A stretch of 6,480 nucleotides of DNA. Source: a virus. Taxonomy: Duplodnaviria > Heunggongvirae > Uroviricota > Caudoviricetes. Positions 1 to 6,480 of this stretch are shown here, piece by piece. The stretch lies in IMG/VR virus record IMGVR_UViG_2537561716_000021, one strand, 5' to 3'. The notes under the pieces are model-generated. The model did not search any database. It was not told the origin of the DNA and saw nothing but the letters and a program-made list of their open reading frames with translations. A program made the translations under genes and the position numbers. Numbering within the stretch: position 1 is the first letter of the stretch; each line of letters starts with the position of its first letter.

Positions 1-42
1 ACCAAGCCTTTGATATATAAGTGTTTTCTCTGTTAAGCGTGA

Positions 43-97
43 GCTACGTGAAAAATAATTTTTAGTGGGTATATCTGTTCAAGAGATTTCACGTAGC
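43..97. repeat. 11-bp perfect inverted repeat GCTACGTGAAA / TTTCACGTAGC with 33-bp AT-rich spacer
   Basis: Arms at 43-53 and 87-97. Lies in the non-coding stretch downstream of the tape-measure gene. Confidence 0.8.
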
Positions 98-144
98 ATT
101 CGACTATTCATAGTTGAATCGTCATACTAGATAAAGATTAATAG

Positions 145-162
145 ATTGCCATGTGTGGCAAT
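145..162 (-). terminator. possible weak terminator hairpin downstream of the tape-measure gene
   Basis: ATTGCCA-tgtg-TGGCAAT, a 7-bp stem with 4-nt loop, 25 nt past the stop at 187. On the minus strand it is followed by a U-rich but interrupted tract (CUAUUAAUCUUUAUCU). Could equally be an operator palindrome. Confidence 0.25.
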
Positions 163-186
163 AAATATTAGTAGTTCTAACATTGT

Positions 187-2265
187 TTATTCCTCTGGGT
201 AAGCTGAGCTAATCAAGGTATCTTCCTGCATACGATTAATATGTGATGTTGTCCTTTCATCAATAACTTTCCCATCAAGTACCGTCTGAGTTGTGATATT
301 GATTGTCTGAGGCTGAATATTTACTGACGGCTTGATAAGCTTTAAATCTTGTGTGAATGTTTCCACTCGACCTTTCAGATTATTTAATGCTTCAGGTGAA
401 AACTGTGGAACATCTTTTGATTTGCCCTGAACCATAGCCCATAAAACAGTGGCTAAAGAGTTCATGTCACCAGTTAATGCTTGGTCTGTGGGTTCCACCT
501 TTGACCTTACAACTTTATCAATTGGATTATCTGACTTACTCATCTGACGTTCACAGAACGGTTTGACAATGGCATTAATCACATCAGTTGCCATACCGAC
601 AATCATTACTTTGGTAATTGCATCAGCTACAGATAGCCTACTTTTTCCACCTTCAACACTACCAGTAGAACGTGAATTGATTCTTCCTGCTGCTGTATTT
701 GCCACATTTCCAAGCGTGGAAATGGCCCTAATTAAGTTCCAGATACCACCTACAGCACCAATCCCAGACCTTACAGCGACTATACCAGCAAGCCCCTTTA
801 ATGCACTTAACAGGCCATTTGCAAGACCATCAGCTACAGCTTTTTGAGTGTCATTTAATTCTCTGTAAGCAAGGGTCACTCTGTCAAAGAATCCCTGCAC
901 TCGGTAGCTAATCGTGGTTAAGTCATCAATACCGTTTGACATGCTTTTCATCAGGTCGCCAAAATGTTCACCAAGATTTTTAGATTGACCACCCAGTGAA
1001 TTAAGTAAATTAGTCAGTGACCTTGTAAAGTCTGTTAAACCTTCCTGTGAACCGTCGAACATTAAGGCCAAATTATTATTCCATGAATTACTTAAGCGGC
1101 CTAACTGCGTCTGAGTAGAGTTAATAATCTTTTCCCATCCCCCAGCTTTAGCAATCATATTACCCATTTCAGCGGATACTTTAGGAAGAACATCTTTAGA
1201 AAGAACTTTACCGTTCTTCATAGCTGCATCTAATTGCTCGGTAGTCATCCCAAGACTTCTGGCAAATAACTGAAAAGCACCTGCCATTCTGTCCCCTAAC
1301 TGACCGCGTAATTCTTCAGCTTGAATCTTGCCCTTGCTCGCCATCTGCTCAAAAGCTTTTAAAATCCCGTTAATTTCATCGGTGCTTAAACCCATTAATC
1401 TGGATGTACCAATCACATTAGAAAATAAGGATTCTTTCTGGCCTGTATCCATATCACCAGCACCAGCGGAAAACTTAGCAAAACTGCTTAATGTTTCAAT
1501 CTGGTCAACACCAGTATTATTAGCAAGATTCTTAACAAATTCTGTAGCTCGTTTAGCACCTTCATCACCTAAAACGAATTGTGCCGCTCGTTGTGATGCT
1601 TCTTTTTTCAGACCAATCTCCATAATCTTCCTATAAGCTTCTAAGGCTGTCTGAAAACTATAAATGGCTGTACCTGCTTTGATTGCACTTGTAGCTAATA
1701 CATCCAGACCATTCGAAGCCTTTTCACTGTGATTGTTTTTGCTGGTGGTCTTGTTAAACTTAGAAAGTGTTTCACGTAGATTTTGATTTAACTTTGCTAA
1801 CTCACGATTAAAAGCTTCGTTTCCAAGTGTCTTGGATTTACTACTTAATGCGTAAAACTGACTCTTAATGTATTTCTCGACAATTGGGTTAAGACCTTTC
1901 AGCTTGGTCATATTCGCTGAATAAGCTGCTGTGATTGCTCTGTTGCCGCTAATTCGTGGCTGTCTTGATTGTTTTGGAGGATTAACAGTGTCATTAAATC
2001 TGGTGGCAAACTGAAATGCTTTTGTGCTTCTTGCTCTCTGTTCAATCTTGTCAAAGGCCTTATTAAACTTCCTTTCAAGCTGCCCTAAAGAAGCCGTTAA
2101 ATTGCTATCAAGCTGCTTTGTATTAATCCTGAAACCTTTATTTAGGTTCTTTTCAATTCTTTGTGCTGACTGCAAAGCTGCCTTTTCAACTCTTTGCAAG
2201 CCCTTAATAACGTTCTCGCTGAAGCCTAGCTCAACGATAAAACTATCAACTGTGAATTTGCTCAT
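187..2265 (-). CDS. phage tail tape measure protein (tape-measure domain family)
   Basis: 692-aa ORF from the track. ATG at 2265..2263 with GAGGTGA 9 nt upstream. Internal stretch KAFEQMASKGKIQAEELRGQLGDRMAGAFQLFARSLGMTTEQLDAAMKNGKV matches the conserved tape-measure domain motif as I recall it. Gly/Ala-rich hydrophobic segment GLANGLLSALKGLAGIVAVRSGIGAVGGIW and helical, K/E/Q-rich N-terminal third are typical of this family. Not verified by search. Confidence 0.75.
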   Translation of the reverse strand: MSKFTVDSFIVELGFSENVIKGLQRVEKAALQSAQRIEKNLNKGFRINTKQLDSNLTASLGQLERKFNKAFDKIEQRARSTKAFQFATRFNDTVNPPKQSRQPRISGNRAITAAYSANMTKLKGLNPIVEKYIKSQFYALSSKSKTLGNEAFNRELAKLNQNLRETLSKFNKTTSKNNHSEKASNGLDVLATSAIKAGTAIYSFQTALEAYRKIMEIGLKKEASQRAAQFVLGDEGAKRATEFVKNLANNTGVDQIETLSSFAKFSAGAGDMDTGQKESLFSNVIGTSRLMGLSTDEINGILKAFEQMASKGKIQAEELRGQLGDRMAGAFQLFARSLGMTTEQLDAAMKNGKVLSKDVLPKVSAEMGNMIAKAGGWEKIINSTQTQLGRLSNSWNNNLALMFDGSQEGLTDFTRSLTNLLNSLGGQSKNLGEHFGDLMKSMSNGIDDLTTISYRVQGFFDRVTLAYRELNDTQKAVADGLANGLLSALKGLAGIVAVRSGIGAVGGIWNLIRAISTLGNVANTAAGRINSRSTGSVEGGKSRLSVADAITKVMIVGMATDVINAIVKPFCERQMSKSDNPIDKVVRSKVEPTDQALTGDMNSLATVLWAMVQGKSKDVPQFSPEALNNLKGRVETFTQDLKLIKPSVNIQPQTINITTQTVLDGKVIDERTTSHINRMQEDTLISSAYPEE

Positions 2266-2277
2266 TCATATTTTTCA

Positions 2278-2317
2278 CCTCATAGACTTCGGATAGAAGG
2301 CTATCCTCATATACAAA
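2278..2317. repeat. ~36-bp hairpin-containing repeat, copy A (just upstream of the tape-measure gene start)
   Basis: ATAGACTTCGGATAGAAGGCTATCCTCATATA at 2282-2313 contains the hairpin GGATAG-aagg-CTATCC (2291-2306). Matches copy B with one mismatch in the loop, and flanking bases are also similar. Confidence 0.85.
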
Positions 2318-2357
2318 AAAGGAGAGTTACCCAGATTGCCATCCAGATAATCTCTCC
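2314..2357 (-). terminator. possible intrinsic terminator between the 72-aa gene and the tape-measure gene
   Basis: On the minus strand GGAGAG (2357..2352) and CTCTCC (2326..2321) form a 6-bp stem followed directly by TTTTTTG (2320..2314). The 25-nt loop is long for a classic terminator. Confidence 0.3.
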
Positions 2358-2373
2358 CGTAGATTTTTACTAA

Positions 2374-2592
2374 CTAACCAACAACTGATACCCAATGATA
2401 ATCACCATCTTCACGAATAATTCTTGAACCAACCGGAATACGGTCAATGCACCACGAAGGAATTTTGCGAATCTTTATTTTGCTGTTTGAGGTGACAGGC
2501 TGATGCTTACTCTTTACCGTTTTTGGTTTACGTGGTTGGTTTTTAAGTTTTTCACAAACTGCCTTGATAGTCTCTAAACGTTCTTCAAACAT
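2374..2592 (-). CDS. hypothetical small basic protein (72 aa)
   Basis: ORF from track. ATG preceded by AGAGGTGA. Starts 22 nt downstream of the 236-aa gene stop, so probably co-transcribed. Lys/Arg-rich N-terminal half. No recognisable motif. Confidence 0.5.
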   Translation of the reverse strand: MFEERLETIKAVCEKLKNQPRKPKTVKSKHQPVTSNSKIKIRKIPSWCIDRIPVGSRIIREDGDYHWVSVVG

Positions 2593-2614
2593 TAATCACC
2601 TCTTTAATTCATAA

Positions 2615-3325
2615 TCAAACAGCCTTGCTATACTTCTGAGAAATCTTCGTTAACTGCTCAATATCAGCCATTAAAGCAATCTTCTTCTGCGACTCATATT
2701 CACTAACAAGCTCTTTCATGCTATCAAGTTCTTTTCTAAGTTTTTGCTTTAACTTATCCAGTTTATCGGAGTAATGCTTAGTCAAATTAGCTTCAGCTAA
2801 CTGAAGAATCTCTTCATCTGTTTTACCAGTCATCAGAATAAATTGACCAGAACCCCTTAATGCTTGTCTGACATCAATTAACCGGAACCCTTCAGGGATA
2901 CTTTGAAGAACTTTAGGAACGTCTTCAATCGCTGTACCAAAACCATCATTAAAGTTTCCTTCATAATAGATAAACGGGTTTGACTTAATCTCGTAAGCAA
3001 TATCATATTCTGAAGGTTTCGAGGTTTCTTCGAAGTTCTTAACAGCATCGTAAGCAATATCAAGTCGAATACGTTGTTCTTTCAGCTGTGGGTAATATTT
3101 CTTTTCAAGCTCAAGTAATGCTTCACCCTTGCAAATATCAGGCATCTCTTGAGGTTCAGGAGCCACAAAGATGGTTGTTTTTGGTGACATCTTTAACTCT
3201 TGCTCAAGTGCAATTCTTTCATCGTGTTCTTTACGCTGAATAGCGATAGCTGGATGTTCAGTCTGTGGTGACCAGTCACCGAAGCTGTCAACCTTTTTAC
3301 CGTTAATATATAAATCGTTTGTCAT
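2615..3325 (-). CDS. hypothetical protein (236 aa) with Lys/Glu-rich, probably coiled-coil C-terminus
   Basis: Track ORF 2615..3370 begins at a GTG (3370..3368) with no ribosome-binding site. The internal ATG at 3325..3323 is preceded by GAAGAGGG at good spacing, so the start is trimmed to 3325. C-terminal ~60 residues (DKLDKLKQKLRKELDSMKELVSEYESQKK) look coiled-coil. No family recognised. Confidence 0.6.
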   Translation of the reverse strand: MTNDLYINGKKVDSFGDWSPQTEHPAIAIQRKEHDERIALEQELKMSPKTTIFVAPEPQEMPDICKGEALLELEKKYYPQLKEQRIRLDIAYDAVKNFEETSKPSEYDIAYEIKSNPFIYYEGNFNDGFGTAIEDVPKVLQSIPEGFRLIDVRQALRGSGQFILMTGKTDEEILQLAEANLTKHYSDKLDKLKQKLRKELDSMKELVSEYESQKKIALMADIEQLTKISQKYSKAV

Positions 3326-3347
3326 TGTTTTTCCCTCTTCTAAGTAA

Positions 3348-3437
3348 TATTCAGTTTTTAAAAAGCACACCTGACAGCCTACGAACTTAGAAGAGACTTA
3401 AAAGCGTTTGCCAAGTGTGCTTTTTAAAAACTGAATA
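3348..3437. repeat. perfect 23-bp inverted repeat (TATTCAGTTTTTAAAAAGCACAC) with 44-bp spacer
   Basis: Arms at 3348-3370 and 3415-3437 are exact reverse complements. Each arm contains TTTTTAAAAA. The left arm ends 22 nt upstream of the ATG at 3325 (minus-strand sense). Confidence 0.9.
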
Positions 3438-3530
3438 GCCCTAGATAATTTCTTATAAAGGGCCATTCATAAGGTGAAGAAATTAAAAGAACATCTAAAG
3501 GATTCAAATGAATGAACAAAGATTTTTGAT

Positions 3531-3562
3531 ATGGCCTATTTAGTGTGGGCTAAATAAGCCAT
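3531..3562. repeat. 13-bp near-perfect inverted repeat ATGGCCTATTTAG / CTAAATAAGCCAT with 6-nt loop
   Basis: Arms 3531-3543 and 3550-3562 with one mismatch. No adjacent T-run on either strand, so not a classic terminator. Confidence 0.7.
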
Positions 3563-3643
3563 GACGAAAAGCATTGCACCTTTCAGAATAACTATCCCTA
3601 GATGTAGATGGAATTGTTGAAAGAAATAAGAGAGAATTGCTCT

Positions 3644-3685
3644 CCCTATAGACTTCGGATAGAAGACTATCCTCATATATACAAT
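3644..3685. repeat. ~36-bp hairpin-containing repeat, copy B (in the long intergenic region)
   Basis: ATAGACTTCGGATAGAAGACTATCCTCATATA at 3648-3679 with hairpin GGATAG-aaga-CTATCC (3657-3672). Immediately preceded by the small hairpin GAGAG-aattg-CTCTC. Confidence 0.85.
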
Positions 3686-3736
3686 TATGTCATGCTCAAG
3701 GTTATTTGTCAACAGCTTTTTAACAGATTGGTAACA

Positions 3737-3814
3737 TCAATTCTTATTTACCGTATTACCTACCCAGCAACCAACCAATAAGCCAAGCAACGTCCAAGCA
3801 ATTATTAAACCCAT
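3737..3814 (-). CDS. possible 25-aa hydrophobic peptide (MGLIIAWTLLGLLVGCWVGNTVNKN), speculative
   Basis: ATG at 3814..3812 overlaps the TAA stop of the 109-aa gene (TAATG coupling). Hydrophobic stretch ends in a lipobox-like L-V-G-C. Below the track length threshold, and the N-region has no positive charge. Confidence 0.2.
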   Translation of the reverse strand: MGLIIAWTLLGLLVGCWVGNTVNKN

Positions 3815-4143
3815 TAGTGAATCCTCATAGAATCCGCAACCAAAACATTGTCAGCGTACAAAATTGTCACAGCACCTTTCAGAAATTGCTCTGGGCTGAC
3901 ACTAAGTTTGTTTGTCTGTTCGATAATCAATCTTTTCATGTTGCTGTCTTTAATTGGTAGCATCATTCGAGGCTCGTTAAACTCCACCGACTGAATAAAG
4001 TCAGAGATGTTTTCTGCATTATCAGCCATCAAAGCTAACAGCCGGTCAAAGTCAATGCTAATACCTGCATCAGTGAAGTGTTGAAGCATGGTCACTGTGT
4101 CGATATCAAGCATAATTTGTAATGGGAAGTTTAATTCTCTCAT
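3814..4143 (-). CDS. hypothetical acidic protein (109 aa)
   Basis: ORF from track. ATG at 4143 with AAGGAG upstream. Lies immediately downstream (minus-strand sense) of repeat copy 1. No motif recognised. Confidence 0.55.
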   Translation of the reverse strand: MRELNFPLQIMLDIDTVTMLQHFTDAGISIDFDRLLALMADNAENISDFIQSVEFNEPRMMLPIKDSNMKRLIIEQTNKLSVSPEQFLKGAVTILYADNVLVADSMRIH

Positions 4144-4173
4144 TTCTTAAAATCTCCTTTTTACCAGACCTCC

Positions 4174-4291
4174 TCAATCGCTCTGTAACGAGCTAAACAG
4201 TCTTTTTCAGGGGTAGCCTGTACAGTGGTATTACCCACCCTAAAATAGGGTAGTTTTTTGCGTTAGAATGCGATTGAGAGCGTCTGAGAAG
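4174..4291. repeat. bipartite intergenic repeat, copy 1
   Basis: Left flank TCAATCGCTCTGTAACGAG (4174-4192) and right flank AGAATGCGATTGAGAGCGTCT (4265-4285) are identical to copy 2. The 72-nt core is divergent and holds the hairpin ACCCTA-aaa-TAGGGT (4237-4251) followed by T6 (4254-4259). Confidence 0.85.
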
Positions 4292-4299
4292 CTGTTTTT

Positions 4300-4587
4300 C
4301 TAATTTCGCTTAAAGTCTCGGACTTGCATAAGGTTTTTTGGTCTGGTATCGGCTCTGTTACCATTTCGATGGATAATTTGCTTATTGGATTGATAGCCAT
4401 GATAAAGGAACCAGACAACATATTTCACATAGAATGTGTATCGACCTATATTAAATGTTTTGTTGCCGTAGTCGTCGGTATTTATCGTGACTGACTCCCC
4501 ATCAGACCAGCACAGGGAATCACTGGATTCATCATAGATAAGGTGTTCTGCAAAATATCTTCTAACATCTTCATGCCAAGGTTTCAT
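4300..4587 (-). CDS. HNH endonuclease (HNH_3 / homing-endonuclease-like, 95 aa)
   Basis: C-terminal IIHRNGNRADTRPKNLMQV fits the H-x-x-G-x-x-x-D-x-x-x-x-N-L HNH core. Preceding aromatic-rich block (YTFYVKYVVWFLYHGY) resembles the region upstream of the HNH motif in small phage HNH proteins. Strong GAGGAGG site. ATGA start/stop overlap with the upstream gene. Confidence 0.7.
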   Translation of the reverse strand: MKPWHEDVRRYFAEHLIYDESSDSLCWSDGESVTINTDDYGNKTFNIGRYTFYVKYVVWFLYHGYQSNKQIIHRNGNRADTRPKNLMQVRDFKRN

Positions 4588-4799
4588 AAAACCTCCTCAC
4601 CCCAATAACCTAATTCAATCTTATGACGTTCAAACCATTCCGGTTTAACTGCTGTTTTCAGTGTTTCATTTGGGCCAATGGCTTTAATGAAAATATCTTT
4701 TGAGTTATGGATGTCACCGAATCCGTTTCCTTTAATCAGGAGGTCGGAGATGTAGCGAATCATTTTATCTGTGTGGTATTCAAAGGTAATGCATAGCAT
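4584..4799 (-). CDS. hypothetical protein (71 aa)
   Basis: ORF from track. ATG overlaps the stop of the 93-aa gene (TAATG) and its own stop overlaps the HNH start (ATGA), i.e. translationally coupled. No motif recognised. Confidence 0.5.
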   Translation of the reverse strand: MLCITFEYHTDKMIRYISDLLIKGNGFGDIHNSKDIFIKAIGPNETLKTAVKPEWFERHKIELGYWGEEVL

Positions 4800-5080
4800 T
4801 AAACCCCCATCGATAGCTTGTGAATCTTGATGCTCAATAGCCGGGCAATATCAATTTTAAAGTTGTTCAGTTCCTTCAGAGTAGCTAGAGCGTTCTGAGT
4901 AATTCTGATGTGTCTGCGACCTTTAGAAACTGGATATTTCAGTAAATCCGACTCAGTGACCTCTTTAGCAATTGCAAGCTGCATAATGGTTTGATGAGGC
5001 AGGTTAGTTGTCTGTTTAATTCGGGTAAGCTCGTGAAAGGCTTCTTCTGAAATACGGGTTAATGTGTGTTTGTTTTTCAT
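4799..5080 (-). CDS. hypothetical protein (93 aa), possibly a small DNA-binding regulator
   Basis: Track ORF 4799..5164 overlaps the 184-aa gene by 83 nt. The internal ATG at 5080..5078 has GAGGA about 8 nt upstream and sits 1 nt after the 184-aa stop (TAAAATG), so the start is trimmed. Function is a guess. Confidence 0.5.
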   Translation of the reverse strand: MKNKHTLTRISEEAFHELTRIKQTTNLPHQTIMQLAIAKEVTESDLLKYPVSKGRRHIRITQNALATLKELNNFKIDIARLLSIKIHKLSMGV

Positions 5081-5081
5081 T

Positions 5082-5636
5082 TTAAAATTCCTCTGCTTGT
5101 GCGTATACGTCAAATTCAAAGTCTGGTTCACTGGTCGTAAGGCTAATATTGCCCACTTCCACATGATGATTGATTGTCTCGATAACTTTCATGCAAATGG
5201 TAGTTAAATTAGCGCAATATTTATCAGATGGTAGCTCGTAGCTAAGTCTGGTTGCTTGACGCTGTAGATAATTTGTTATTGTGCTTGAGCTAATCTTGTC
5301 AATATTTCGTAGTAAATAGAAAACTTTTTGGTGATAATTATCCCTTCCAAAACTGCGACAAGTACCGATAATTGCATCTTCAATTTTTGATGGTAATTGC
5401 TTGTAGCTGTCAAAACTCATCAAGAAAGGTTTCAAGTTATTCTTCGTTGTTTTGCGTACTGGCATAAATCTGTCTCGTGGCGTAATGCTACGAATGACCG
5501 CTTCAATGTTTTTACGTTCGGATTTGGTAAAGGCTGGGACTTCGTAGCTGGTGGGGTTGTTTGTGTAGCTGTAACCGTTGTGTCTGTTGCGTCTCTTGGA
5601 TTCTTCAAGAAACTTTTGAAATTCTCTGTCGTTCAT
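5082..5636 (-). CDS. hypothetical protein (184 aa), first gene of the HNH operon
   Basis: ORF from track. ATG at 5636. Preceded by a candidate sigma70-like promoter on the minus strand. No family recognised. Confidence 0.6.
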   Translation of the reverse strand: MNDREFQKFLEESKRRNRHNGYSYTNNPTSYEVPAFTKSERKNIEAVIRSITPRDRFMPVRKTTKNNLKPFLMSFDSYKQLPSKIEDAIIGTCRSFGRDNYHQKVFYLLRNIDKISSSTITNYLQRQATRLSYELPSDKYCANLTTICMKVIETINHHVEVGNISLTTSEPDFEFDVYAQAEEF

Positions 5637-5686
5637 TCATAAGCTGGCCCTTATAATTGTTAATTCTCTGTTAACTCATATATACA

Positions 5687-5715
5687 ATCCTAGCATTTTC
5701 AAAGGCTAATGTCAA
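5687..5715 (-). promoter_or_regulatory. candidate sigma70-type promoter for the 184/93/71/HNH operon
   Basis: Minus-strand TTGACA (5715..5710), 17-nt spacer, TAGGAT (5692..5687), about 50 nt upstream of the ATG at 5636. The -10 is weak. Confidence 0.4.
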
Positions 5716-5722
5716 GTATTTT

Positions 5723-5752
5723 TTAACATTTTATTAACATCTGTGGTATAAT
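5723..5752 (+). promoter_or_regulatory. candidate rightward promoter with extended -10 (TTAACA, 18 nt, TGgTATAAT)
   Basis: TTAACA at 5723-5728. TG at 5744-5745 followed by TATAAT at 5747-5752. Divergent from the operon promoter. Would transcribe repeat copy 2 and the small ORF at 5934. Confidence 0.5.
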
Positions 5753-5830
5753 GGGTTTATGGGGAGAGTAAAATATAAAGGCGTGGCCATGTATTTGGTC
5801 ACATGGTTATTGCATTGCACACAGACATCT

Positions 5831-5925
5831 TCAATCGCTCTGTAACGAGTTAAATGGCCTCTTCAGGTCAACTATAAGGTCAGGTACTTTTTTGTGTCAG
5901 AATGCGATTGAGAGCGTCTTACAAG
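5831..5925. repeat. bipartite intergenic repeat, copy 2
   Basis: Left flank 5831-5849 and right flank 5899-5919 are identical to copy 1. The 49-nt core is different but also ends in T6 (5888-5893). Confidence 0.85.
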
Positions 5926-5933
5926 GAAAACTA

Positions 5934-6110
5934 ATGGTAAATCTCCCTCAGGAATTGGGGTCACCTGATGTGTGGGCTGGTGGAGGTATTGGACTTATTG
6001 CAGGTCTGCTACTTCGCTACGTCCTCGTCAGGGTGCTTGTTGTCTTTAAACTGTTCGGTCGTACATGGACGCTTGACCTTAAGGATAACGACCATACAGA
6101 CCCCCGTTAA
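5934..6110 (+). CDS. possible small membrane protein (58 aa: MVNLPQELGSPDVWAGGGIGLIAGLLLRYVLVRVLVVFKLFGRTWTLDLKDNDHTDPR)
   Basis: Track ORF 5892..6110 begins with TTG. The ATG at 5934 has AAGGA 7 nt upstream. One clear hydrophobic helix (GIGLIAGLLLRYVLVRVLVVF). Lies in a GC-richer ~200-bp stretch between the AT-rich block and the IS end. Confidence 0.35.
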   Translation: MVNLPQELGSPDVWAGGGIGLIAGLLLRYVLVRVLVVFKLFGRTWTLDLKDNDHTDPR

Positions 6111-6142
6111 AATCCCTCCAAAACCCCCTGTACGAGATGGTA

Positions 6143-6480
6143 TGAACCGCCCCGGGTTTCCTGGAGAGTGTTTTATCTGTGAACTCAGGCTGCCAGATCA
6201 TCGTTTCCGATGGAAGCATAATAAGCTTTTTCTGCTTCTGCCGGAGGAGTATGGCCCAGCCTTCCCAGCAATCGTCGATTGTTATCCCAGTCCACCCACG
6301 TTAGTGTGGCCAGTTCCACTTCTGCCGGTTTTTCCAGCTCTTACGGTGTATTACCTCCGCTTTGTAAAGACCATTGATGCTCTCGCCATCGCGTTGTCAC
6401 GAGTCGCCTGTACTCCCTGTTGATGCCAGTAATCCGGCTTCTTTTAGTCGCTCCGTATAGGCCAGTGACACATACTGAGA
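6143..6480 (-). mobile_element. IS3-family insertion sequence, terminal part (IS629/IS1203-like as recalled), continuing past the window edge
   Basis: Terminal sequence TGAACCGCCCCGGGTTTCCTGGAGAG starts at 6143 and matches the IS629-group terminal inverted repeat as I remember it. Minus-strand translation from the window edge reads SQYVSLAYTERLKEAGLLASTGSTGDS and later ESINGLYKAEVIHRKSWKNR and AEVELATLTWVDW...GHTPPAEAEKAYYASIGNDDLAA, a DDE transposase OrfB C-terminus. Composition is visibly GC-richer than the rest. Confidence 0.7.
6185..6480 (-). pseudogene. IS3-family transposase OrfB, C-terminal portion, disrupted
   Basis: In the frame that encodes SQYVSLAYTERLKEAGLLASTGSTGDS there is an in-frame TGA at 6399..6397, exactly where the conserved YDNA motif should be. 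The conserved C-terminal tail is then in a different frame (shift near 6322-6327) and ends at TGA 6187..6185. Hand-translated. Confidence 0.5.

Follow-up and report, generated by a model that had tools for sequence, protein, structure and literature searches.

Sequence comparison identifies each of the two repeated elements in the window (by which we mean the whole stretch of 6,480 nucleotides analysed) as two oppositely oriented arms of one conserved DNA motif of ~30 bp, separated by a spacer of 50-75 bp. We regard these elements as candidate protein-binding or architectural sites, formed by a conserved cis-acting DNA motif that is paired in inverse orientation across the spacer, and we rate the chances of this interpretation as roughly even. 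The site is assigned to the DNA level because of the sequence homology of the motif, its link to T5-like phages, its helical phasing, its behaviour as a conserved unit, the constraint acting on the whole sequence and its independence of orientation.

The identical 19-nt and 21-nt flanks reported for both copies in the initial annotation are borne out: the left flank TCAATCGCTCTGTAACGAG is found at 4174-4192 and 5831-5849 (chance expectation 0.02) and the right flank AGAATGCGATTGAGAGCGTCT at 4265-4285 and 5899-5919 (chance expectation 0.00), all four occurrences being exact. The inter-flank lengths of 72 and 49 nt, both stretches ending in T6, and the mutual inversion of the flanks, which enables the ends of an element to pair, also stand; ~26 nt are inverted, with 77% complementarity, and the inverted partner is significant in copy 1 (z 6.1) and marginal in copy 2 (z 1.7). 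The cores, which had been taken for unrelated sequences, can in fact be aligned at either end, copy 2 having a deletion of 23 nt in between, and the core of copy 1 is homologous to the core of variant B. The T6 run is restricted to variant A, AAAAT being found at the same position in variant B. The distance from arm to arm amounts to ~105 bp in copy 1 and ~82 bp in copy 2, and these distances are not both multiples of the helical turn, which counts against a DNA site. The motif, found in full in the right arms (Table 1), comprises two or three tandem 10-bp units (TYAGAAWGCG, WTWSAGAGCG and TYTNAGnnnn) preceded by a run of A or T. The right-arm sequence is conserved even without an inverted partner, and the motif is found alone, as direct repeats or as inverted pairs in at least 15 unrelated contexts.

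Table 1. Positions of the two elements, their parts and the neighbouring features in the window
Feature	Position	Strand	Basis or remark
Copy 1 (variant A), imperfect palindrome between the HNH gene and the 109-aa gene	4165..4291		repeat search, conservation
Copy 1 left arm, diverged inverted unit array; minus-strand reading CTCG-TTACAGAGCG-ATTGAGGAGG-TCTGG	4165..4192	-	nhmmer, weak (E 0.77)
Copy 1 core (spacer), holds hairpin ACCCTAAAATAGGGT	4193..4254		folding, terminator scan, alignment
Copy 1 right arm, full motif T6-GCG-TTAGAATGCG-ATTGAGAGCG-TCTGAGAAGC	4255..4295	+	nhmmer E 1.9e-8, copy in training set
Free-standing HNH endonuclease gene, discrete 276-bp insertion	4326..4601	-	comparison of junctions between islands
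Divergent promoter-like sites	5687..5752		motif scan; 90-92% conserved
Copy 2 (variant A, core 23 nt shorter)	5822..5925		repeat search, filled and empty sites
Copy 2 right arm, full motif T6-GTG-TCAGAATGCG-ATTGAGAGCG-TCTTACAAG	5888..5925	+	nhmmer, training-set member
TAATGGTAAAT, 10/11 match to the cer XerD arm (TTATGGTAAAT)	5932..5942	+	overlap with the small-ORF start codon (ATG)
58-codon small ORF for a predicted membrane protein, with copy 2 in its leader	5934..6110	+	~90% nucleotide identity; annotated CDS in L008

The window is part of a ~13-kb island that is inserted into yecE of E. coli O157:H7 and carries a serine integrase, a baseplate protein, a tape measure protein closest to those of Felix O1-like phages, and long non-coding regions; a megablast search with the whole window against phages and plasmids gave matches only at the IS629 end. 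A different family of inverted repeats adjoins the gene of the small serine recombinase. In a survey of ~450 E. coli genomes and metagenomes, copy 1 was present in ~85% of the related islands. Across 31 islands it is 94-98% identical, compared with 70-83% for the neighbouring genes, the identity falls sharply at its left edge, and the entire core is conserved, beyond the stems. These comparisons argue for strong purifying selection acting on copy 1. Copy 2 is found in only about half of the islands that have the same 184/93/71 genes, and the loci examined comprise 30 filled and 18 empty sites for this indel (L006 representing the filled type and L008 the empty one). The search for additional copies proposed in the initial annotation did reveal more of them beyond the window: intact islands contain a third copy, inverted, which makes three copies per island in two orientations. 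In some islands (L142) a TGTGCA-N5-TGCACA palindrome lies to the left of the third copy, with a spacing unlike that of the cer ARG box. A scan of genome contigs with a 14-nt pattern, which was too short, yielded 120 loci, almost all of them chance matches, and Escherichia albertii as the only relevant match.

Both copies had been placed exactly at the boundaries of a cassette formed by the 184/93/71 genes and the HNH gene. This is correct for copy 1, which lies 9 nt past the stop codon of the HNH gene, but not for copy 2, which is located ~190 nt upstream of the start of the 184-aa gene, beyond the promoter of that gene, in the plus-strand leader of the small ORF. The minus-strand promoter-like site (TTGACA-17-TAGGAT) faces the 184-aa operon, and the plus-strand one (TTAACA-18-TATAAT, preceded by TG) faces copy 2 and the small ORF. 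In the transcript of the minus-strand operon, the complete right-arm motif of copy 1 is present as its complement, and in the transcript from the plus-strand promoter that of copy 2 is present in sense. For the 109-aa protein, the homologue search found 3272 relatives, all of them unnamed and without Pfam domains.

Blastn searches with the motif as a query matched 204-482 phage records (best E 1e-6 to 3e-6); among the matches listed, nearly all are T5-like phages of 105-125 kb, with some of the matches annotated as terminal repeat. In T5, repeats B (5285-5310) and B' (6184-6209), annotated as inverted repeats in the first-step-transfer (FST) terminal repeat (Wang et al. 2005, AY587007), are the short form of our motif. 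A long form, which is unannotated, is located at 9264-9300, at the start of repeat region 3, after an annotated terminator and with no annotated promoter nearby. Phage phiR2-01 has five copies of the motif, all within the non-coding parts of the terminal repeat, and a local blastn comparison with the island locus L006 aligned 43 nt at 81% identity (E 4.7e-4). The nhmmer scores of the T5 short forms are weak (IRB: E 0.033; IRB': E 0.028), and the strong score of the T5 copy at 9264-9300 is circular, because this copy is in the training set. The short and the long form (T5 IRB vs the T5 copy in repeat region 3) differ in length by exactly one 10-bp unit, and so do ColE1 cer and the Col156 site, and the left and the right arm of variant B. 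Reading the element as a cos or pac site next to the HNH gene was rejected, as the phage matches fall in the non-coding regions of T5-like terminal repeats and not at known cos/pac sites.

Davison 2020 (doi 10.1101/866236) describes the T5 repeat regions as highly conserved, without a known function, and interrupted in T5 by an HNH gene. The non-coding regions of the terminal repeat, a feature known for decades, belong to the best-conserved parts of T5-like genomes; they have no assigned function and are candidates for the injection stop signal. The finding that the B-type repeat of T5 is near-invariant in hundreds of E. coli islands and is also present in plasmid cer-like sites suggests one shared DNA-binding partner. 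We speculate, with low confidence, that a single protein (a host factor or the T5-like pre-early A1/A2) may recognise the motif in the FST repeats of T5-like phages, in cer-type sites and in these small, previously undescribed chromosomal islands, and that the islands could sense, exploit or interfere with the infecting phage as a satellite or a decoy. If this were true, the island copies would make it easy to study genetically what the T5 repeat regions do, the injection stop signal included. Natural alleles are available for tests: filled vs empty copy 2, variant A vs variant B, and short vs long forms. Apart from a weak HNH match, no homology to T5 pre-early genes was detectable in the window, and as to a T5-type location, the window lies on the chromosome, within an island that occupies yecE and has a serine recombinase, and has no Demerecviridae long terminal repeat. 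Literature searches found nothing relevant for the motif strings and no report of T5 satellites.

The third setting of the motif is in plasmids, where it forms the XerC-proximal end of the accessory sequences in the cer-like sites of the ColE2/Col156 plasmids (MOBQ4); a cer-like site is known from these plasmids (PMC6856555). The right arms of copy 1 and copy 2 agree with the Col156 site in 30/32 positions, and the Col156 version is held by 1287 plasmid records. On the plasmids, an ARG-box-like palindrome lies before the motif, and after it comes GGTGCGTACAA-gaggag-TTATGGTAAAT, in which both arms are identical to the core arms of ColE1 cer. With ColE1 cer itself the motif shares a short stretch (GCGTTTTAG plus GAA), perhaps by chance. 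Two other readings of the plasmid locus were rejected: the apparent RNAI stem-loop and terminator of ColE2 are nearer to rep, downstream of the motif, which lies in the cer-like site and not in an RNAI/rep leader, while Rcd RNA runs from Pcer towards and past the XerCD core, and the inverted-repeat region is upstream of the Rcd start.

What we infer from the observed homology, distribution, conservation, indel boundaries and 10-bp length steps, namely the binding of a protein, the identity of the factor and its physiological role, can be outlined as follows. The phased 10-bp units would be bound by a protein on one face of the helix, the candidate binder being a host architectural factor as on cer accessory DNA (PepA, FIS), or a factor of the phage or the island. 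With two inverted arrays and a bendable spacer between them, the DNA could fold back into a compact nucleoprotein structure, which in the island might organise or insulate the junctions between transcription units. In this reading, copy 1 is a fixed component of the island, and copy 2 a secondary copy, either gained by insertion or lost by palindrome-promoted deletion; the HNH gene is an independent homing-type insertion beside copy 1. Inspection by eye of the motif for the consensus of FIS, ArgR, IHF and DnaA found poor matches, and the window has one weak match to a DnaA box, at 2548. Also by eye, a boxA/nut-like sequence (CGCTCTGTAAC vs GCTCTTTAACAA), a CsrA site (UACAAGGA in copy 2), and sites for FIS, IHF, ArgR and sigma-E gave partial or single-family matches and were not adopted. 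A sigma-70 promoter reading of the motif was rejected, since hexamers and spacings (judged by eye) are inconsistent between families, and so was a recombination site for the small serine recombinase (invertase/resolvase), as the element has no known similarity to hix or gix sites.

The best surviving alternative, which we consider possible but clearly less probable than a DNA site, is a cis element acting at the RNA level, i.e. a transcribed hairpin that serves as an attenuator/terminator or as a stability/processing signal. Copy 2, situated between the strong plus-strand promoter-like site and the ORF, would then attenuate the plus-strand leader of the small membrane-protein gene, and copy 1 would terminate antisense transcripts of the plus strand and fold into a hairpin between cistrons of the minus-strand operon mRNA, as described for ERIC and Correia elements. 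Both strands of both copies fold much better than shuffled sequences (z -2.2 to -5.1). The plus strand reaches -47 kcal/mol in copy 1 (z -5.1) and -31 kcal/mol in copy 2 (z -3.3), and is consistently more stable than the minus strand, by ~6 kcal/mol in all three copy classes; this stability is in line with an RNA element, as is the ACCCTAAAATAGGGT hairpin followed by T6, which the terminator scan called on the plus strand of copy 1 only, copy 2 not being called. However, the intrinsic terminator is not conserved among the homologues: variant B is without the T-run, and the T6 and the terminator hairpin are missing there and in most other families.

The substitutions in the arms can be read in a similar way. 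Some changes in copy 2 are G-U compatible or improve the pairing, e.g. the frequent variant GAGAGCG>GAGGGCG, which gives better pairing and a worse motif, and one 5-bp stem (TRACG/CGTYA) co-varies across families. Further co-variation of the arms between families (CGC/GCG vs CGAG/CTCG; TCAATCGC/GCGATTGA in variant A vs CTGTAACG/CGTTACAG in variant B) would also fit selection for a hairpin of RNA or of single-stranded DNA. Against this, the consensus fold across families has only -2.9 kcal/mol, the single substitutions within classes are evenly split, with no strand bias (~7 plus-type vs ~6 minus-type), and no compensatory double changes were found in the long-range arm pairs within any copy class. 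The Rfam 15 cmscan of the window (E<=10) reported only two matches, both at chance level and elsewhere in the window, so that the elements match no Rfam family, and the tRNA/tmRNA scan of the window found none. The small hairpin GCTC-tgtaac-GAG(C/T), which the initial annotation had proposed within the left flank, lies outside the minimum-energy folds, and a recurrent T>C change (GCCC), present in one copy-1 locus and at least 4 copy-2 loci, breaks its pairing. In addition, conservation extends over the whole core and not just the stems, the T5 long form has the position after a terminator mentioned above, and length steps of 10 bp would be meaningless for RNA. We disfavour the structured RNA of the initial annotation also because the full right-arm motif is antisense in the mRNA containing copy 1 and sense in that containing copy 2.

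A second alternative is a MITE-like or otherwise selfish palindrome, inserted at these positions without serving any purpose for the island. We regard this as unlikely. The anatomy noted in the initial annotation does resemble a miniature inverted-repeat element (inverted ends of ~26 bp, a size of 104-127 bp, and length variants via internal deletion), and copy 2 shows a precise filled/empty polymorphism with the flanks ACA(G)...ACA(AG), and the leader in which it lies has another small palindromic indel close by; the empty site, however, is explained equally by palindrome-promoted deletion between short direct repeats. The resemblance also fails in dispersal and target duplication. There are at most three copies per island, at fixed positions, the 1-7 places per genome fit 1-3 island matches per genome plus plasmid cer-like sites, and none of the copies was at an unrelated locus, all loci examined being either islands of this family or cer-like sites of plasmids. 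Copy 1 is without a target-site duplication (flanks ACC and GAG), and its conservation is far above that of the neighbouring genes. Apart from a 236-aa homologue in some islands, and IS elements, the annotated islands inspected have no annotated transposase.

Slightly less credible still, and in our view improbable, is that copy 2 together with TACAA-GGAAAAC-TAATGGTAAAT constitutes a cer-like Xer site for resolving multimers of the excised island, either functional or decayed only recently, in which copy 2 would be the accessory sequence. Between the T-run and the XerD arm, both included, the region is collinear with the cer-like site of Col156, the XerD-arm match and the TACAA just upstream of it align to the Xer core of the Col156 cer-like sites, and this XerD arm (10/11) is the only such match within the window. 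However, of the XerC arm only the final five bases, TACAA, are left, 9-10 bp are missing in comparison with the plasmid site, and there is no ARG box at the expected distance; inspection by eye revealed no ARG-box-like palindrome to the left of either copy 1 or copy 2. Moreover, the XerD-like arm persists in islands without copy 2, where a conserved ORF has its start-codon region there, and neither copy 1 nor the third copy has a Xer core. A role of copy 1 in Xer recombination is unlikely.

The weakest alternative, that the two copies are recombination or homing boundaries of a mobile 184/93/71/HNH cassette, as initially proposed, may draw on the variable region that abuts copy 1 (with three different right-hand neighbours) and on the crossovers that could occur at conserved repeats, but we consider it very improbable and contradicted by the islands compared, in which the cassette and both repeats do not co-occur consistently (L007 and L008 have the 184/93/71/HNH genes without copy 2, an outcome that the initial annotation had named as refuting the idea), no more than the HNH gene makes up the indel, which has junctions of its own at 35 bp from copy 1, and the 184/93/71 genes have diverged much as the remainder of the island has (73-86% identity). 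The sole mobile unit is the HNH gene by itself, and there is no four-gene cassette. The gene is found in ~45% of the islands, with 94-99% identity, and is inserted to the right of copy 1; it is absent from the same junction in L020, L143 and L006, where the sequence reads AAAGTCTCGGACT|ACCAATA. In the empty-site comparison suggested in the initial annotation, these three islands, which are without this HNH gene, still keep copy 1. The local picture is thereby corrected to a single free-standing HNH gene, mobile beside a conserved site, as in T5.

Among known systems, the PeSL (promoter-early stem-loop) repeats flank mobile gene cassettes in T4-type phages. The island elements are similar to them as repeated intergenic modules beside variable gene content in a phage-like genome, but the genes between the island repeats are not the variable unit, and the repeats contain no consistent promoter. 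ERIC, Correia/CREE and YPAL are imperfect palindromes of 100-150 bp, intergenic or untranslated, with length variants due to internal deletions, and can be co-transcribed as hairpins. The palindromic structure, the internal-deletion variants and the intergenic/untranslated location are shared by the island elements, one copy of which is polymorphic for presence or absence; unlike those families, however, the island copies are not dispersed and have neither a consistent target duplication nor any sequence similarity to them, and copy 1 has a fixed position and appears to be under strong purifying selection. In the comparison with cer-type sites, the left arm is similar, arm, T-rich spacer and arm follow each other in the same order over a similar length, and a partial match to the Xer core follows copy 2, whereas the island has no ARG box and harbours its three copies in two orientations. 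The FST repeats of T5-like phages (Demerecviridae) have the same core, either short (AGAAAGCG-TTTTAGG) or long (TTAGAATGCG-ATCTAGGACG-TTTTAGG). The inverted partners of T5 are hundreds of bp apart and point inward, whereas the arms in the island are 50-75 bp apart, point outward and form a compact palindrome of 104-127 bp, and the island differs from a T5-like genome in being a chromosomal element that has a serine integrase. Nonetheless, the two share the non-coding setting, the inverted pairing of copies and a very high conservation beside poorly conserved genes, and in T5 itself, as in the island, an HNH endonuclease gene is inserted beside the repeat.

The window from 1 to 6140 is essentially 100% identical to a ~13-kb island that E. 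coli O157:H7 genomes carry within yecE and is followed by the end of an IS629/IS1203 element, which is 98.5% identical to copies from Stx phages and is inserted ~30 bp downstream of the stop codon of a small ORF. In strain E32511, the same island carries the IS elsewhere, within a second HNH gene. The O157:H7 island encodes a large serine recombinase as well as a baseplate and a 692-aa tape measure protein, together with several small unnamed genes (all island genes of the window lie on the minus strand), while its right part is long and mostly non-coding. Of 5426 complete E. coli genomes, 525 contain related islands, most of them 80-90% identical, which lie either in yecE or in the tonB-yciI interval; E. 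albertii and gut metagenomes have related islands too. The family (window 187-2265; 17641-19952 in the related island L001) is characterized by a serine integrase, a baseplate protein and a tape measure protein and by non-coding DNA (2-3.5 kb) in which promoter-like sites are numerous. The tape measure protein is closest to those of Felix O1-like myoviruses, to which it aligns over its full length at 29% identity, and the family could represent a phage satellite or a tail-related defence island; literature searches found no published description of it.

Coordinates of the annotated and predicted features (L001 and L006 are related islands)
Feature	Sequence	Position	Strand	Remarks
HNH endonuclease gene	window	4326-4601	-	discrete 276-bp insertion
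Small conserved ORF, 58 codons	window	5934-6110	+	predicted membrane protein with hydrophobic stretch MVNLPQELGSPDVWAGGGIGLIAGLLL...
IS629/IS1203 end	window	6141-6480		
Recurrence of copy 2 core	L001	26883-26903		
Recurrence of copy 2 core	L006	19046-19075		
43-nt inverted partners	L006	12016-12058 vs 20377-20419		
Inverted repeat B (IRB)	T5	5285-5310		annotated; short form AGAAAGCGTTTTAGGCGGCTTATTTT
Inverted repeat B' (IRB')	T5	6184-6209		annotated; short form of the motif
Long form of the motif	T5	9264-9300		unannotated; after terminator 9196-9212, before palindrome D and IRD'

The repeat reported in the initial annotation is real and highly non-random. Its 19-nt left and 21-nt right flanks each occur exactly twice, at the coordinates given there (chance expectation at most 0.02), the arms are inverted across 26 nt with 77% complementarity, and each copy folds far better, on either strand, than shuffled sequence does. 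The similarity between the copies runs past the flanks (4165-4206 vs 5822-5863 and 4249-4291 vs 5883-5925), and the cores, previously described as unrelated, are not, because both of their ends align, with a 23-nt gap in copy 2. The element occupies at most three fixed positions in related islands. Copy 1, which separates the 109-aa gene from the last gene of the 184/93/71(/HNH) block, is present in ~85% of 31 diverged islands, where its identity is 94-98% vs 70-83% for the surrounding genes; at its left edge the identity drops from 0.976 to 0.797. The third copy, present in intact islands in inverted orientation, is the diverged variant B, found in a non-coding region a few hundred bp from the gene for a small serine recombinase; the O157 island instead has a second HNH pseudogene and an IS element in place of this region. 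Variants A and B show homology over their whole length, yet their arms pair in different registers (TCAATCGC with GCGATTGA in A, GCTCTGTARCG with CGTTACAGAGC in B). At the copy 1 position of the related island L142 (9894-10033) we observed a different compact version, CCAGTAACC-atgcg-GGTTACAGAGG, which lacks the core and has nearly adjacent arms.

Copy 2 is filled at 30 of the 48 sites examined. Empty sites read GCATTGCACACAG joined directly to GAAATTTAATGGTAAAT, and compared with them the window contains an extra 98-100 bp, with ACA(G) on one side and ACA(AG) on the other. Copy 2 may have arisen either by insertion or by a duplication followed by patchy, palindrome-promoted deletion. The copy 2 core CAGGTCAACTATAAG (window 5866-5880) recurs inverted in the non-coding region of the islands, ~130 nt past the third copy; hence copy 2 may be a chimera. 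The leader upstream of it (window 5783-5802; 10627-10680 in the island L008) is a hotspot of small palindromic indels, and in other islands the position of the window hairpin GTGGCCATGTATTTGGTCAC is taken by a palindromic insertion of 51 bp with CTATG on its flanks.

The conserved unit of the element is the right arm. An exact-pattern scan of metagenomes (TYAGAAWGCGWTWSAGAGCGT) retrieved at least 120 loci in 21 sequence contexts, several of which are other small islands with integrases, capsid-like or tail genes and small serine recombinases. Among the genuine motif families, about half possess an inverted partner that is significant (z 2.1-9.2) and lies 45-110 nt upstream; in the remaining ones the motif stands alone or in direct repeats. 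Together with ColE2/Col156-type plasmids and T5-like phages, these loci bear out the existence of further copies elsewhere.

Units of 10 bp make up the motif (TTAGAATGCG, TTACAGAGCG and TTTTAGAGnn), and its long and short forms differ by exactly one of them, as seen between T5 IRB and the copy from repeat region 3, between ColE1 cer and the Col156 site, and between the left and right arms of variant B. Steps of one helical turn are a requirement of a protein array on one face of DNA and have no meaning for RNA. The motif sequence is conserved even without a pairing partner, and its orientation toward transcription is not constant: the operon that crosses copy 1 reads the full right-arm motif as the complement, while a promoter-like site upstream of copy 2 reads it in sense. 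In T5 the motif lies beyond an annotated terminator. On the basis of the 10-bp steps, the partner-free conservation, the mixed transcript orientation and the weak outcome of the RNA-structure tests, these sequence comparisons lead us to favour a site acting at the DNA level.

Copy 2, at least, may nonetheless act as a hairpin within its leader, because the arms co-vary from family to family, the plus strand exceeds the minus strand in stability by ~6 kcal/mol, and one common copy 2 variant improves the pairing at the cost of the motif. The initial proposal of a structured RNA is weakly supported at best: an Rfam search returned no match for the element, arm substitutions within the three classes of copies are single transitions split about evenly between plus-strand- and minus-strand-compatible ones, and the cross-family consensus fold reaches only -2.9 kcal/mol, with one co-varying 5-bp stem. 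The suggestion that the copies bound a mobile cassette is contradicted by the islands L007 and L008, which carry the full gene block including HNH without copy 2, and by the HNH gene being a 276-bp insertion on its own; no mobile four-gene cassette is bounded by the two repeats.

The HNH insertion is an event separate from the repeats. The gene is absent at an identical junction, AAAGTCTCGGACT followed directly by ACCAATA and lying 35 bp right of copy 1, in three related islands (L020, L143 and L006). It is present in ~45% of the islands at 94-99% identity, which decays toward the 71-aa side, as a free-standing homing endonuclease gene would be expected to show. An HNH gene also splits the repeat regions in T5 itself (Davison, doi 10.1101/866236), and the island gene exhibits weak similarity to this ORF between repeat regions 1 and 2 (tblastn E-value 6e-5).

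Other repeats were observed in the islands. An inverted repeat at window 3348-3437 (29-nt arms, 93% complementarity, 32-nt loop) lies between the 236-aa gene and a promoter-like site at 3712-3684 and is 83-92% conserved. A promoter/leader module is repeated at 2270-2318, 3636-3738 and 5675-5741 and comprises TTGACA...-10, a conserved start region GTATATATGAG and a hairpin GGATAG-nnTTC-TATCC. Segment 3681-3740 is 95% conserved, and since the copy at 3647-3629 is followed by a terminator-like hairpin, a short minus-strand RNA of ~55 nt is possible. A second inverted-repeat family (GTGAGCTACGTGAAATCT; window 38-110 and 1770-1786) is found in the interval that separates the baseplate gene from the tape measure gene; intact islands have a 43-nt inverted partner 8.3 kb away, adjoining the small serine recombinase gene, and this arrangement may mark an invertible segment.

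Among phages, the motif was matched in 204-482 records, and nearly all of the matches listed are T5-like phages of 105-125 kb, some of these matches carrying a terminal-repeat annotation. Yersinia phage phiR2-01 has five copies, all within non-coding terminal-repeat DNA, and the one at 8857 is identical to island variant B at 35 of 43 positions, flanking bases included. In 25 T5-like phages the repeat regions are highly conserved beside poorly conserved genes and are candidates for the injection stop signal (Davison, doi 10.1101/866236). Small ColE2/Col156-type plasmids, reported to carry a cer-like site (PMC6856555), match the motif at 30 of 32 positions; an ARG-box-like palindrome precedes the element, and the motif is followed, after 7 nt, by the core GGTGCGTACAA-gaggag-TTATGGTAAAT.

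The most likely mechanism, we infer, is a protein-bound fold-back complex. The phased units would be recognised by a protein, and two inverted arrays over a 50-75-bp spacer would fold the DNA into a compact complex, like the accessory sequences in the cer synapse, which in the islands would be seated at junctions between transcription units. Candidates for the binder are PepA and FIS, host proteins with a role on cer accessory DNA, or else a protein of a phage or of the island.

The XerC/XerD core located in ColE1 cer has both arms identical to the plasmid core, and window copy 2 is collinear with the plasmid cer-like site through TACAA...TAATGGTAAAT. At copy 2 this stretch forms the ribosome-binding region and the start of the 58-codon ORF (annotated as a CDS in some genomes), whose start codon falls within a stretch that matches the XerD arm of cer at 10/11 positions. 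The islands thus provide a new version, compact and chromosomal, of a repeat for which T5 already has an annotation and which is related to the accessory DNA of cer.
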